Shown: positions 30,140-34,618, counted from the first letter of the stretch. The stretch is 64,000 nucleotides of DNA from an uncultured Myxococcia bacterium (GCA_942493285.1 OW818691.1:7126484-7190483), one strand, 5' to 3'. A program made the numbers and translations. The notes: a model not told the origin generated them from the sequence alone.

Positions 30140-30733
30140 TCAGCGCGTGGTCGGCATCTTCGAGAGCTTGCGCTGGAGCGAGCGGCGGTGGAGGCCGAGC
30201 AGGCGTGAGGCTTTCGAGATGTTGTGGTCGCAGTCCTGCATCACACGTTCGATGTGTTCCCACTCGACGCGGGCGAGGCTCGGGACCGCTTCGGGTTCGA
30301 GCGGTGGGCGTGAGGTCGGTGTGTCCGGGTCGGCGTCGGGCTCGCGGAGGGCGCGCAAAATCTGGGCGGCGTCGGCTGGCTTCTGGAGGTAGTGGACGGC
30401 GCCGAGCCGGAGGGCCTCGACGGCGGTAGCGATGCTGCCATAGCCGGTGAGAACGAGGACACGGATGGCGGGGTCGATGGCGATGAGGTCGCGCACGACG
30501 TCGAGGCCGTGGTCGTTGGGCATTCGCAGGTCGACGACCGCCATCTCGGGGCTGTCGAGCTGGGCGTGAGCGCGCGCGGAGGGGCCGTCGGCGACGCCTG
30601 TGGCGATGAGGCCGCGGGCGGTCAGTGCGCGAACGAGGCGGTCACGAAAGACGTCGTCATCGTCGACGACGAGGATGGTCTCCGCATCGTCATCGGGCGG
30701 TCGAGGTTGCTCGTCAGAGGGCGTCGGGTTCAT
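30140..30733 (-). CDS. Response regulator, RegA/PrrA/ActR type (receiver + C-terminal Fis-type HTH)
   Basis: 197 aa. ILVVDDDDVFRDRL…VVDLRMPNDHG…LVLTGYGS receiver. C-terminal …NISKASRLLGLHRRSLQRKL Fis-like HTH. Start overlaps the kinase stop (ATGA). Confidence 0.8.
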   Translation of the reverse strand: MNPTPSDEQPRPPDDDAETILVVDDDDVFRDRLVRALTARGLIATGVADGPSARAHAQLDSPEMAVVDLRMPNDHGLDVVRDLIAIDPAIRVLVLTGYGSIATAVEALRLGAVHYLQKPADAAQILRALREPDADPDTPTSRPPLEPEAVPSLARVEWEHIERVMQDCDHNISKASRLLGLHRRSLQRKLSKMPTTR

Positions 30734-32160
30734 GAGATGTGCCCCGTGAGCTTGGCTGGGATCTCGAGCGAGACCTCCGAGCCGCCGCCGTCCCGAGGTC
30801 GGACGGTCAACCTGCCGCCGAGCTTGTCGGCGAATGAGTGTGCCAGGTGAAGGCCCAGGCCAAGCCCACCGGGGCGATGTGAGTTGAAGGGCTCGCCGAG
30901 GCGGGCGAGGGCCTCGGGTGGGAAGCCTGGACCGCGGTCGCGCACGGTCAGTTGGGCTCGGTTCGCTTCGATGCGGACCACGAGCTCGACCGCAGTCGTC
31001 GACACATCGAGGGCATTTCGCACGAGATTCGAGAGGCTCTGGGTGAGGCTGCGCCGCGGAAGGATGAGGTCAGCGGCGAGGTCGCCATCGACGACCAGGC
31101 GGGTGTGAGAGCCGAGCGGGAGGTGTTCTCGCAGGTCGTGGACGAGCTGGCCGAGTGTGAGGCGTTCGGGGTTCTCGCCCGCCCACGTGCCAGCGCGCTC
31201 CGAGAGGTCGCGCAGGAGGTCGCGGCAGCGGTCGACCTCGCGTCGGACGAGGCGTGCATCATCGACGAGCTGAGCCGAGCCGGGAGAGGACTCGAGGGCC
31301 GAGGCGAGCTCGGTCGCGACGACGGCGATGGTCGAAAGCGGTGTTCCGAGCTCGTGGGCGGCGGCCGCCGAGAAGGCTGCGAGTGATGCCATTCGTTCGG
31401 CTTCGAGGGCGCGTTCGCGCAGGTTTGCGGCTTCACGTTCGCTGCGGCGTAAGGCGAATGCGATGCCCGAGACGAACATGGCGACGAGCGACGCGGCCAG
31501 CGCGTAGGCGACCCACATGCCCTGGAGGTGGACCGCGTGGGCCGAGCCGCCGTTGTGGTGGGCGTGGGGGTCTTCGGGGGCGAGCAGAAAGAGGAGGCCA
31601 AAGCCGAGCGTCGTCAGGCCGGCCATGAGCCACGCGCCGACCGCGCCGAGCAGCAGGCCGGCGAGGGCGACCTCGACGATGTAGAAGACCGAGAATGGAT
31701 TCATCGGGCCGCCCGAGGCCAGGAGAATGGCCGTGAGCAGAGCGGTGTCTAGCGTCAGGGTGGCGGCGATGACCGGGGCGGGTCGGCGATGGGCGAGCGG
31801 CAAGGTCGGTGTCGCGGGGCGGCGCAGCGTGAGGTACAGGCCGATATTCGAGGCGGCCAGGACGCCGATACAGCCGAGCACCCAGGAGAGGTCGAGGTCG
31901 GTCTCGACGATGGTCACGCCGACCAGGGTCGCGATGAGCTGACCCGCGACGGCGACCCAGCGCAGGCGAACGAGCCAGGGGATTCCGGGTCGTGAGTCGA
32001 GCTGTGGGCTGGGCGTCAAGCGGTCTCGTGGGAGATGTGTGTGGATCGGTCGGAGGCTCAGAGATCGTAGGCCAGCGATAACACGCCGAAGAGCCCTTCG
32101 TCGTGGGCGCCGTCCAGGGCTTCGATGACGGGGACGCGAAGGCCGAGCGTGAGGAGCCAT
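30730..32160 (-). CDS. Sensor histidine kinase, RegB/PrrB/ActS type
   Basis: Multi-TM N-domain containing the RegB-family quinone-site heptapeptide GGxxNPF (SGGPMNPFSV). H-box AAAHELGTPLSTI. HATPase (…VRDRGPGFPPE…GGLGLGLHLAH…). True start uncertain: the first ~45 codons of the maximal ORF are Arg-rich and overlap the upstream gene, and a TTG at 32019 is possible. Confidence 0.75.
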   Translation of the reverse strand: MAPHARPSRPRHRSPGRRPRRRALRRVIAGLRSLSLRPIHTHLPRDRLTPSPQLDSRPGIPWLVRLRWVAVAGQLIATLVGVTIVETDLDLSWVLGCIGVLAASNIGLYLTLRRPATPTLPLAHRRPAPVIAATLTLDTALLTAILLASGGPMNPFSVFYIVEVALAGLLLGAVGAWLMAGLTTLGFGLLFLLAPEDPHAHHNGGSAHAVHLQGMWVAYALAASLVAMFVSGIAFALRRSEREAANLRERALEAERMASLAAFSAAAAHELGTPLSTIAVVATELASALESSPGSAQLVDDARLVRREVDRCRDLLRDLSERAGTWAGENPERLTLGQLVHDLREHLPLGSHTRLVVDGDLAADLILPRRSLTQSLSNLVRNALDVSTTAVELVVRIEANRAQLTVRDRGPGFPPEALARLGEPFNSHRPGGLGLGLHLAHSFADKLGGRLTVRPRDGGGSEVSLEIPAKLTGHIS

Positions 32161-32939
32161 TCGGCGGCTGGTGTCACGAGGATGTCGCCGCCCAGGAAGG
32201 CGATGAAGCCGCCGGAGTCGGCGACCGGCTCGCCGTGGTCGTAGGCCTTACCATCGAGCCGGGATTCGAGTGCGAGGCGAAAGGAGAGGGCGAGGCGGCG
32301 TTCGCGCCAGAGCTCGTATTGGTAGTTGGCGGCGAGCTGGAGGCTCGGGCTGGAGTCGCCGGTGGGCCAGGTTCCCCAGGTCGAAAACGATATCGCGTGG
32401 GGGTGGGTGGCGTGGGTCAGTGCGAGACCGAGCGATGGGTCGAACGAGCCGCTGCCGGGCTGGGCTTCGTGGGGGAGCTTGCGGGTCGCGCCGTAGTGGG
32501 TGCGGGTGAGCGTCGGGGCGGTCGGGATCGAGAGGCCGGCCGAGAGAGCCACGCCGCGCGTGAGATGGAGGCGGGCGCGGAGTCCGAGGTCACCGGTCGC
32601 GAGCAGTTGGTCACTGCCGCTGTCGCCGTAGGTCGCGTCCCGATAGATGAGCGGTACAGCGACCTGCAGGAAGAGATCCGAGCTCGGGGCCCAGGCGAGG
32701 CCGAGCTCGGTGCGGACCTCGGAGAGGATGATACGCGTGCCACCGGTGCCGATGTCGTCGGCGCGGGTGCGGCTCTCGAGGGCGAGGCGAAGGCGGTTCT
32801 TGTAGGGGCGCTCGGCGCCGAAAGCGGTGAGGGTCGGGTCACCGGTCAGACACGAGGCGCAGGCGTGTCCGTCGGGAGTGGGTGTAAGTAGCTGAAAGGC
32901 GGCAATAAATGTCGCAGCGGCGAAGGTTCGAGCCTTCAT
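32058..32939 (-). CDS. Predicted outer-membrane beta-barrel protein
   Basis: ATG at 32939 (ATGA overlap with the upstream stop). Signal peptide MKARTFAAATFIAAFQLLTP. Alternating amphipathic beta-strands to the C-terminus (…FGVLSLAYDL). The ORF-track N-extension (to 33473) is rejected. Confidence 0.5.
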   Translation of the reverse strand: MKARTFAAATFIAAFQLLTPTPDGHACASCLTGDPTLTAFGAERPYKNRLRLALESRTRADDIGTGGTRIILSEVRTELGLAWAPSSDLFLQVAVPLIYRDATYGDSGSDQLLATGDLGLRARLHLTRGVALSAGLSIPTAPTLTRTHYGATRKLPHEAQPGSGSFDPSLGLALTHATHPHAISFSTWGTWPTGDSSPSLQLAANYQYELWRERRLALSFRLALESRLDGKAYDHGEPVADSGGFIAFLGGDILVTPAAEWLLTLGLRVPVIEALDGAHDEGLFGVLSLAYDL

Positions 32940-33682: not shown

Positions 33683-33703
33683 GAGGGTGCCTGGCTCACG
33701 CCG

Positions 33704-34618
33704 TCATTCGACCCGGAAGGCGGACTGGGATTGGGCTGGGCCGCCGGTCGTGAGGTCGATACCAAAGGCCGCGAAGATGGACGCGCACTCGGGGTCGTCC
33801 TTGCCGGACATGCAGCCGGGGGCGCCGCCGCCGTCGGTCGAGAGGTCGAGGCCTTTGACGGCCTCGGCGAGGTCGATGACGATGGTGTCGGTCGTGTGGT
33901 CGTAGTCGGTGAGCGCGATGGTCCCGCGGTTGGGGGCCGCGCAGCTGCTGACGGTCTGTGTCCCGGCGTCGAGGTCGCACCCGGTCGAGCCGAGGTGGAT
34001 GTTGAAGCCGCCGGCGCCATGTCCGCCTTCGCCGCCTTCAACGGGCATCGCCCCCATGACGGACAGGTCGAGGCGGGCGAACTTGTAGCCGCCCTGCCAG
34101 TTCCAGAACAGTCCCGATAGATTGAGGGGTGAGGCGGCGGTGGCGACGTCGGCGTGGTTGAGCTCGAACGGGACACCGAGCTTGAACGTGACGCCCGTGA
34201 TGGTCGGCTCGTCGTGGCCGGGGTCAATGGTGCCACGAACGAAGCGGTTCGTCGGGGTCGTGCCGTTGATGCAGGTGCCGGTCTTGTCCTCGAAGTCGAG
34301 GAGGACGAGGCCATCGCGTTGCCAGAGGCCGTCGTCGGTGACGTCCAGCGGCCACTGCTTGCCGGTCGAGTCGACGAGGCGGACGTCATGGAGATAGAGC
34401 CGGAAGTCGAGCGGGGTGGCCATGCTGTCGGCGGTGCCGAGGCCCATGAAGGTCTTGTCGCAGCCGAAGGCTTCGTCGCCGACCTGGGCTGCAAACCGCA
34501 GCTCGATGGTCTGGTCGTGACCGTGGTCGCCGTGGTCGTCGCAGGCGGTCGTGAGGGGGGCGAGGGCGAGAGCCGCGAGGGGCAGGGGGCGGAGCGAGCG
34601 GAGCTTCATCGACTTCAT
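33704..34618 (-). CDS. MbnP-like (WxW-motif) putative copper-binding periplasmic lipoprotein
   Basis: 304 aa. Lipoprotein signal (…ALAPLTTAC). His-rich start of mature protein DDHGDHGHDQ. WNW motif (GLFWNWQGGYKF). Several Cys pairs. The MbnP-family assignment is from memory of the family signature, not a computed hit. Confidence 0.45.
   Translation of the reverse strand: MKSMKLRSLRPLPLAALALAPLTTACDDHGDHGHDQTIELRFAAQVGDEAFGCDKTFMGLGTADSMATPLDFRLYLHDVRLVDSTGKQWPLDVTDDGLWQRDGLVLLDFEDKTGTCINGTTPTNRFVRGTIDPGHDEPTITGVTFKLGVPFELNHADVATAASPLNLSGLFWNWQGGYKFARLDLSVMGAMPVEGGEGGHGAGGFNIHLGSTGCDLDAGTQTVSSCAAPNRGTIALTDYDHTTDTIVIDLAEAVKGLDLSTDGGGAPGCMSGKDDPECASIFAAFGIDLTTGGPAQSQSAFRVE

Follow-up and report, generated by a model that had tools for sequence, protein, structure and literature searches.

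We analysed a window of 64,000 nucleotides (nt) from an uncultured Myxococcia bacterium (GCA_942493285.1 OW818691.1:7126484-7190483). Calling of open reading frames (ORFs) over these 64 kb places five co-oriented, closely spaced genes on the minus strand from 34618 to 30140, as the original prediction had it. Read in this direction, they encode an MbnP-family lipoprotein, a probable lipoprotein of an uncharacterised family (called g2 here), an outer-membrane beta-barrel, and a sensor histidine kinase with its response regulator, both of the RegB/RegA type; a candidate operator precedes the first gene (Table 1).

Table 1. Genes and candidate operator of the five-gene locus; positions are counted from the first letter of the window, lengths are in amino acids (aa) unless stated otherwise.
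Feature	Position	Strand	Length	Assignment	Basis
mbnP	33704..34618	-	304 aa	MbnP-family copper-binding lipoprotein	matches to TIGR04052, Pfam MbnP and PDB 7L6G
g2	32936..33682	-	248 aa	probable lipoprotein of an uncharacterised family, MbnP-like fold (predicted)	
barrel	32058..32939	-	293 aa	outer-membrane beta-barrel, divergent relative of PF13557 (Phenol_MetA_deg)	
kinase	30730..32019	-	429 aa from TTG 32019	RegB/ActS/PrrB-type sensor histidine kinase	
regulator	30140..30733	-	197 aa	RegA/ActR/PrrA-type response regulator	
candidate operator	34697..34713	.	17 bp	inverted repeat TGCGACGATTTGCCGCA, minus-strand reading	

The genes had also been described as joined by ATGA overlaps, which holds for two of the four junctions: true start/stop overlaps are present between g2 and the barrel gene (32939-32936) and between the kinase and regulator genes (30733-30730), and the latter two genes, judged by this layout, are translationally coupled to each other. 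At the two remaining junctions the description fails. The ATG of the ATGA string at 33707-33704 opens merely a 3-codon ORF, and g2 starts at ATG 33682, after a gap of 21 nt; there is no ATGA at 32058, and the barrel and kinase genes are separated by ~38 nt if the kinase starts at TTG 32019, which is its most likely start. The sole other start, ATG 32160, is unlikely; it is located within the barrel gene and would add an Arg-rich tail of 47 aa.

The kinase is composed of the Pfam domains 6TM_PilS, HisKA and HATPase_c, the first of which, together with the hydropathy profile, delineates an N-terminal domain with six transmembrane (TM) segments. Its best NCBIfam match is NF033792 (ActS/PrrB/RegB; 229.8 bits, model positions 13-418 of 423). 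Features that are fully conserved in RegB include the heptapeptide GGXXNPF between TM3 and TM4 (N110, F112) and the TM1 residues R31 and Q38, while its redox-active Cys265 sits between the phospho-accepting His and the kinase domain (PMC3000548). The heptapeptide on which the original prediction was built is found in the window kinase as GGPMNPF (aa 103-109, 31693-31713), within the string SGGPMNPFSV (aa 102-111, 31687-31716), at the TM3/TM4 junction between the hydrophobic segments 82-104 and 107-148. The TM1 Arg and Gln correspond to R20 and Q27 in LVRLRWVAVAGQ, with the same spacing of 7 as in RegB; the H-box AAAHELGTPL contains H222 (codon 31354-31356), and the redox-box Cys is C265 in DRCRDLLR (31225-31227).

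As a reference pair we used ActS/ActR of S. meliloti, with an NCBI record annotated "ActS/PrrB/RegB family redox-sensitive histidine kinase". ActS and the window kinase can be aligned over their whole length (422 residues with 34% identity, E 8e-51) and the four hallmarks are co-aligned: the string LVRLRW.AV.GQ is common to the two proteins, GGPMNPF pairs with GGLANPF, and DRCRDLLR with ERCRDILR. The heptapeptide is no chance match: of the 120 closest homologues listed, 118 have it together with the other hallmarks, and 116 have the redox-box Cys, nearly always as RCR. The kinase thus has every RegB hallmark whose absence would have made the heptapeptide a coincidence, and with all of them present the pair is therefore of the RegB/RegA type. 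The original prediction had noted that such systems are best known in alpha-proteobacteria. RegB-like kinases are, however, not unusual in Myxococcota: the kinase has 2404 homologues among database proteins at E<=1e-10, and of the 120 matches listed many are named RegB by the Joint Genome Institute (JGI), while those named by NCBI come mostly from Myxococcota, including Pendulispora and Labilithrix, where they bear names such as "ATP-binding protein" or "HAMP domain-containing histidine kinase" and nothing more specific.

A RegB-like pair of another context is encoded on plasmid AZO_p5 of Azospirillum lipoferum (locus L092, 1-5813), directly after cyoABCD-SURF1. Its kinase is 32% identical to the window kinase, possesses all the hallmarks, and carries merely the NCBI name "ATP-binding protein". 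By gene order, this looks like another RegB-type pair dedicated to a single respiratory operon.

One region distinguishes the window kinase from ActS. Its periplasmic loop between TM5 and TM6 is rich in His (PEDPHAHHNGGSAHAVH, aa 148-164, 31528-31578), and 114 of the 120 closest homologues listed have at least three His in this loop, often accompanied by Met in strings of the HAMHMHH type, whereas the equivalent loop of S. meliloti ActS has zero. Such a His/Met-rich loop may form a metal-binding site. As the main rival reading, it could be argued that the kinase is in fact a periplasmic sensor of copper or another metal that acts through the TM5-TM6 loop in the manner of CopRS/CusRS, with its quinone and Cys features secondary or vestigial. 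This we hold to be unlikely, even though the operon encodes putative metal-binding envelope proteins and the loop contains on average 5.3 His+Met in kinases encoded beside MbnP versus 3.9 otherwise, a difference that is confounded by phylogeny. GGxxNPF, the TM1 Arg/Gln and the RCR Cys are nearly universal, which argues that the quinone/Cys features are still in use, and the Corallococcus branch retains the gene module described below though its loop is poor in His. The copper-sensor and redox-sensor readings are mutually compatible.

The regulator comprises the Pfam domains Response_reg and HTH_8, the latter a Fis-type helix-turn-helix (HTH), and matches NF033791 (ActR/PrrA/RegA) best among NCBIfam models, over its full length (167.3 bits). 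It is 46% identical to S. meliloti ActR over 178 aa (E 1e-45), and in the PDB it matches 3rqi ("Response regulator protein", 1e-36) and the effector domain of PrrA (1umq, 1e-10). The phospho-acceptor is D68 (30530-30532). The recognition helix of the HTH, LHRRSLQRKLSK (30158-30232), aligns with MHRRTLQRILAK of ActR and MHRRTLQRKLAK of 3rqi; its HRRSLQRKL is invariant across the regulator clade and near-identical in ActR and 3rqi. The HTH_8 match and the ActR alignment agree with the RegA-type HTH recognised in the original prediction. Cys168 of the regulator, in VMQDCDHN, is aligned with the Cys in VYEMCERN of ActR; according to Ke & Bauer, the Cys directly before the HTH (Cys156) is invariant in group-1 RegA (PMC9147068). 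Among 47 module-linked regulators this position is occupied by Cys in 26 and by Ser in 15.

The candidate operator lies in the intergenic region, 94 bp 5' of the mbnP ATG, and reads TGCGAC-N5-GCCGCA. Published binding sites of this regulator family are degenerate (RegR, GNGRCRTTNNGNCGC; PrrA, YSCGGC-N5-GWCRMA; RegA, SSGNVRDNHYSNCSS; PMC5506826), and ChIP-seq (chromatin immunoprecipitation followed by sequencing) in R. sphaeroides yielded no strong motif (PMC4263372). The window box has one mismatch to the RegR box and two to the PrrA box. The generic pattern GCGNC-N5-GNCGC shows no enrichment in the whole window (9 occurrences found versus 13.5 expected, one of them at 34698-34712), so the significance of the site at 34697 derives only from comparative and weight-matrix analysis. 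For the former, we used 83 loci and, at each, the 250 nt that precede the cluster's first co-directional gene. This literature-derived pattern is present in 42 of the 83 upstream segments, with a density of 2.36/kb as compared to 0.28/kb over 1.1 Mb of locus sequence (binomial P ~6e-27). The 49 sites share further traits that had not been searched for, namely an A/T-rich spacer, a flanking T (38/49) and a flanking A (42/49), from which the consensus TGCGACAAnTTGYCGCA was derived. Of the 39 matches to this extended 17-mer in the 1.1 Mb of all loci, 27 fall in the upstream segments, which make up 1.8% of the sequence. A position weight matrix (PWM) built from the other loci, with the window excluded, assigns a score of 26.6 to the window site; the next best site in the 64 kb scores 7.2, and 30 shuffled windows reach maxima between 5.0 and 20.4. 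We predict that the regulator binds this box.

A search for RegA-type boxes had been proposed upstream of 34618 and of the urease and cytochrome operons. Upstream of 34618 it gave the strong site described above; by PWM, no strong box is found at the urease genes (47.4-51.1 kb) or at the MtrC-like cytochrome (60.6-63.2 kb). The relation between the box and the two-component system (TCS) across loci is not one-to-one, since 14 loci have a box with no TCS in reach and 20 have a TCS without an exact box. The former loci mean that the regulator can act at a distance, and RegB/RegA systems act globally in alpha-, beta- and gamma-proteobacteria; it might be supposed that in this organism the pair acts as the global RegB/RegA redox regulator and that little can be learned about its main targets from its place beside the envelope genes. 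We regard this as very improbable: in the 64 kb covered by the scan, the sole strong box fronts the operon, while the urease genes, the MtrC-like cytochrome and the other genes have none, and the linkage of the pair to the barrel module persists through many rearrangements (see below).

Of the envelope proteins, MbnP is the most securely assigned, and here the original prediction of an MbnP-like lipoprotein proved correct. It scores 270 bits against TIGR04052 (equivalog cut-off 140) and 9e-38 against Pfam MbnP, and the crystal structure of MbnP (PDB 7L6G) aligns over aa 36-297 with E 1.9e-40. In 7L6G, copper is coordinated by kynurenine-174, one His, one Met and a solvent-derived ligand. The kynurenine derives from one of the Trp residues in the conserved WxW; MbnH is given as the enzyme responsible for its formation, and MbnP depends on it for copper binding. 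According to the family alignment, the window protein keeps W172-N-W174, the conserved H208 and the conserved C269-M270; its family-conserved Cys residues are C53, C116, C214, C226, C269 and C278, in agreement with the four-Cys pattern. The lipobox Cys26 is followed by a tether rich in Asp and His, DDHGDHGHD (34514-34552, aa 23-35). D/H-rich tethers of this kind also occur in the related loci L001, L009, L033, L077, L084 and L088.

The g2 protein has no Pfam match, and its structure, predicted by AlphaFold from a 72-sequence alignment, matches only MbnP; on this model, g2 has an MbnP-like fold. In its family C79 and C134 are invariant, and H99 and Y133 nearly so. The protein had been described simply as secreted; it does belong to the envelope, but it is rather a probable lipoprotein, because its N-terminal Cys23 is conserved and close homologues possess canonical L-S/G-A-C lipoboxes.

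The barrel carries an invariant C27-x-x-C30-x-x-G-D-P-T after its signal peptide. Throughout its family (~290 aa) a C-x-x-C, usually extended to CxxCxC, and then GDPT(L/I)T come straight after the signal peptide, and a second motif, QPGSGSxDP, is invariant. The window barrel itself has no match to the Pfam model PF13557; 4 of 20 family members do match it (best E 4e-9), so we consider the relation to be remote. A profile search of the PDB with the barrel family found no match, and a Pfam scan detected no SCO1/SenC domain in the operon or in the neighbouring genes.

In order to see how far this gene set recurs, we scanned for relatives with the barrel alignment, taking one genome per species (308 relatives), and kept 80 loci, mostly from Myxococcota and several from metagenome-assembled genomes of Gammaproteobacteria. 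Six-frame ORFs of these loci were scored with one profile per component, and components were counted at distances up to 6 kb from the barrel; the scores are cleanly bimodal, with RegB-like kinases at 209 bits or more and other kinases at 111 or less. Near the barrel, g2 is found at 54 of the 80 loci, the RegB-like kinase at 45, the RegA-like regulator at 43, MbnP at 23 and the di-haem MbnH at 20, while a different lipoprotein of ~200 aa takes the place of g2 at 19. In the "well-flanked" subset, i.e. the 46 loci flanked by 5 kb or more on either side, the kinase-regulator pair is present at 31 and MbnP at 17, of which 15 also have MbnH. In most related loci MbnH directly follows MbnP; the form without MbnH is restricted to the window and its nearest relatives (L001, L009 and L010).

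The order and orientation of the blocks vary among loci, with the TCS upstream, downstream or divergent. The identical five-gene order, amid unrelated flanks, is found on a metagenome contig with a barrel of 50% identity, the order in Corallococcus is barrel-g2-kinase-regulator, and in Pendulispora rubella it is mbnP-mbnH-g2-barrel-kinase-regulator. Linkage that survives such reshuffling of orders and orientations is, as far as gene order can tell, a signature of functional coupling, and on account of this synteny we rejected a chance adjacency of the genes. The claim of the original prediction that the sensor pair is wired to envelope genes can thus be extended to dozens of genomes.

Several of the related loci show peculiarities of their own. 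The ~200-aa lipoprotein that replaces g2 (L081 4120-4740, L085 8201-9388 and 17 other loci) has no Pfam match and is characterised by the motifs EPDEYxGCxxDEHWRTFDD and GPxCxxCCPE(W/F)NTG...HLPPxSGDVYDLQF. A variant locus (L090, 4944-8853) encodes a YtkA-domain protein, a PF13557-like barrel, a thioredoxin-fold protein of the Redoxin/AhpC-TSA type, a RegB-like kinase and a RegA-like regulator. In the metagenome relative L001 (11275-11867, 14673-15441), the operon is followed by genes for SbtA-like and P-II proteins together with broken-up ORFs of a kinase, a receiver and an HTH_8 domain; with 132 bits, the last of these is scored as another regulator of the RegA-like kind.

The recurrence data also bear on the question of what the module handles. 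A cargo other than copper under redox control, be it the uptake of a hydrophobic or aromatic compound by way of the PF13557-type barrel or a role in envelope thiol/oxidative-stress chemistry using the Cys motifs, would agree with Phenol_MetA_deg as the sole Pfam relative of the barrel, with the many loci that have the barrel and g2 without MbnP, and with the variant in which YtkA and a thioredoxin-fold Redoxin are found instead; the conserved Cys pairs could likewise be structural disulfides. Yet MbnP/MbnH, for which copper binding is the sole known role, recur in 17 of the 46 well-flanked loci, g2 has the predicted MbnP fold, and the D/H-rich and CxxC motifs are of a kind typical for metal sites, which leads us to consider a non-copper module quite improbable. 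We assign copper because the chemistry of MbnP is known, because MbnH is often present and g2 has a predicted MbnP-like fold, and on the grounds of the Cys/His motifs and the precedent of senC: group-1 regA and regB are invariably cotranscribed with this copper chaperone gene, and RegA itself binds copper (PMC9147068). The Azospirillum plasmid described above supplies a further example, with a RegB-type pair that looks dedicated beside a respiratory function dependent on copper.

Taking these observations together, we consider it fairly probable that the locus encodes a self-contained and probably autoregulated system of the RegB/RegA type that controls an envelope copper-handling operon, in parallel to regB-senC-regA. 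In the mechanism that we propose, by analogy with RegB, reduction of the membrane quinone pool and/or of Cys265 would lead the kinase to autophosphorylate on H222, and the phosphate would then be passed to D68 of the regulator, which would bind the box at 34697-34713 and set the transcription of all five genes, including its own. The barrel, g2 and MbnP would together serve as a path for copper in the outer membrane and the periplasm, along which the metal is taken up, held or passed on, and the supply of copper to cuproenzymes, e.g. haem-copper oxidases, would thereby track the state of the respiratory chain. The logic would be that of the alpha-proteobacterial regB-senC-regA cluster, executed with other copper proteins.

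A number of results weigh against this interpretation. Both members of the sensor pair score under the NCBI equivalog cut-offs, the kinase with 229.8 bits where 350 is required (next unrelated family 75.9) and the regulator with 167.3 where 250 is required (next unrelated family 71.5); judged by these scores, the pair is of the RegB/RegA type but belongs to a divergent subfamily that is non-orthologous to the alpha-proteobacterial one. No ORF with two CxxCH motifs, as expected for MbnH, is found in the 64 kb: MbnP is directly trailed by g2, with no MbnH between them, and the only multi-haem ORF of the window is the 10-haem MtrC-like protein. The relation of g2 to MbnP is one of fold, as a comparison of the g2 and MbnP profiles with hhalign found no link at the sequence level (non-significant, probability 1.3%). 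An exact match to the box is absent from 41 of the 83 loci, and the box shows only a weak association with the presence of a TCS next to it (Fisher P 0.12). Scans of the region for sigma-70 promoters and terminators gave no promoter-like or terminator-like element that could be called. Finally, copper as the cargo, the direction of its transport and the signal sensed are all three things that we infer. Myxobacteria use menaquinones rather than ubiquinone, and for this reason the known ligand of RegB may not apply here. A quinone-pool-responsive module, as suggested by the original prediction, would follow from the kinship of the kinase to RegB; the His/Met-rich loop could instead sense metal directly.

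A wider proposal, which we put forward only tentatively and consider rather doubtful, would see in these loci an undescribed envelope copper system, widespread in Myxococcota and present in some uncultured Gammaproteobacteria, in which the CxxC barrel and the MbnP-fold lipoprotein, often together with MbnP/MbnH, are hard-wired to a RegB/RegA-type pair through the palindromic operator. The kinase would integrate a redox signal (quinone/Cys) with periplasmic copper (His/Met loop), and the lineage of the window would employ MbnP without MbnH.

The surroundings of the operon are unremarkable in composition. GC content is ~0.68 and even across the region, and the GC content at third codon positions (GC3) of the five genes is 0.83-0.90; because of this uniformity we rejected an origin from a prophage or mobile element. 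Upstream of the operon, a divergent intergenic region of 316 bp (34619-34934) is shared with an M20 peptidase gene (ATG 34935), and the flanking genes are unrelated (a trypsin-like peptidase, a TPR protein and an 1811-aa FG-GAP/HYR protein). An Rfam search of 29500-35500 gave no match. The sole "terminator-like" hairpins of the region (30652-30672, minus strand) lie inside the regulator coding sequence, in DDDD codons, and their number is at chance level. Elsewhere in the window, the urease genes (47423-51139, plus strand) encode a urease alpha subunit and a UreG-type GTPase; upstream of them lies a gene for a hybrid PAS-PAS histidine kinase/receiver protein (43884-45812, plus strand), and neither has a RegA-type box. 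At 60634-63195 (minus strand) we found a protein of 853 aa with ten CxxCH motifs, MtrC/MtrF domains II/IV, an OmcA-like N-terminal domain and collagen triple-helix repeats. According to its domain matches, it is a Shewanella-type decahaem outer-surface cytochrome fused to collagen-like repeats, in a myxobacterium-like genome.

RegB/RegA is the textbook global redox regulator, whose DNA site has been hard to define and whose link to copper comes through its neighbour senC. A one-operon variant, as this one appears to be, with a clean 17-bp palindrome that dozens of genomes conserve, would be a tractable system for the study of RegA-type DNA recognition, and equally for asking whether RegB-type kinases read menaquinone and how respiration is coupled to copper supply. 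The module would also place two so far unannotated families, that of the CxxC barrel and that of the MbnP-fold lipoprotein, in a functional context for the first time. It would further extend the MbnP/MbnH copper pair past methanotroph-type loci, with a natural example in which MbnP occurs with no MbnH. MbnP and the domains that make up the sensor pair are all already known. A literature search, with the primary papers on MbnP/MbnH outside its reach, returned no description of a RegB/RegA-type pair with MbnP(H), of the CxxC barrel and MbnP-fold lipoprotein families, of the sharp operator, of the His/Met loop or of MbnP without MbnH.

Among known systems, the sensor pair resembles RegB/RegA and its counterparts PrrB/PrrA, ActS/ActR, RegS/RegR and RoxS/RoxR most closely. 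The kinase shares with them six TM segments, the TM1 Arg/Gln, GGxxNPF between TM3 and TM4, the AAAHELGTPL motif and an RCR Cys ~40 residues further on; the regulator, like those of the RegA type, is small and consists of a receiver, a linker rich in proline and a Fis-type HTH that has a Cys just ahead of it and an HRR(S/T)LQR recognition helix. The two genes are adjacent, as in RegB/RegA systems, and the candidate operator is likewise an inverted repeat of the GCG type. The differences are the low identity to ActS and ActR (34% and 46%), the scores under the NCBIfam equivalog cut-offs, the His/Met-rich TM5-TM6 loop of the window kinase clade, which ActS lacks, the missing senC in the window operon, and the menaquinone used by the host phylum. 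Unlike PrrA/RegA, with their notoriously degenerate sites, the window regulator would recognise a well-defined palindrome in what is apparently a one-operon system.

With CopRS/CusRS the locus has in common the grouping of a TCS with envelope metal-binding proteins and a sensor whose periplasmic part is rich in His and Met; however, the window kinase has short loops and no periplasmic sensor domain, the regulator has a Fis-type HTH rather than one of the OmpR type, and the operon contains no genes for RND proteins, P-type ATPases or multicopper oxidases. The barrel is similar to PF13557 barrels in length (~290 aa), and some members of its family match the Pfam model, but the family is set apart by its own CxxC(xC)GDPT N-terminus, by QPGSGSxDP and by an obligatory lipoprotein partner. 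MbnP is comparable to its namesake in the MbnP/MbnH "metallo-mystery pair" (TIGR04052/TIGR04039), scoring over the equivalog cut-off and keeping WxW; unlike MbnP/MbnH loci, the window operon is without MbnH, a TonB-dependent transporter or a methanobactin gene, and the partners of MbnP are a PF13557-like barrel and a RegB/RegA pair. The nearest parallel for the arrangement as a whole is regB-senC-regA (prrB-prrC-prrA). Where that cluster relies on a Sco/SenC thioredoxin-fold chaperone, the window has MbnP, an MbnP-fold lipoprotein and a barrel; in both, a RegB/RegA-type pair is cotranscribed with the gene of a copper-binding protein that faces the periplasm (PMC9147068).

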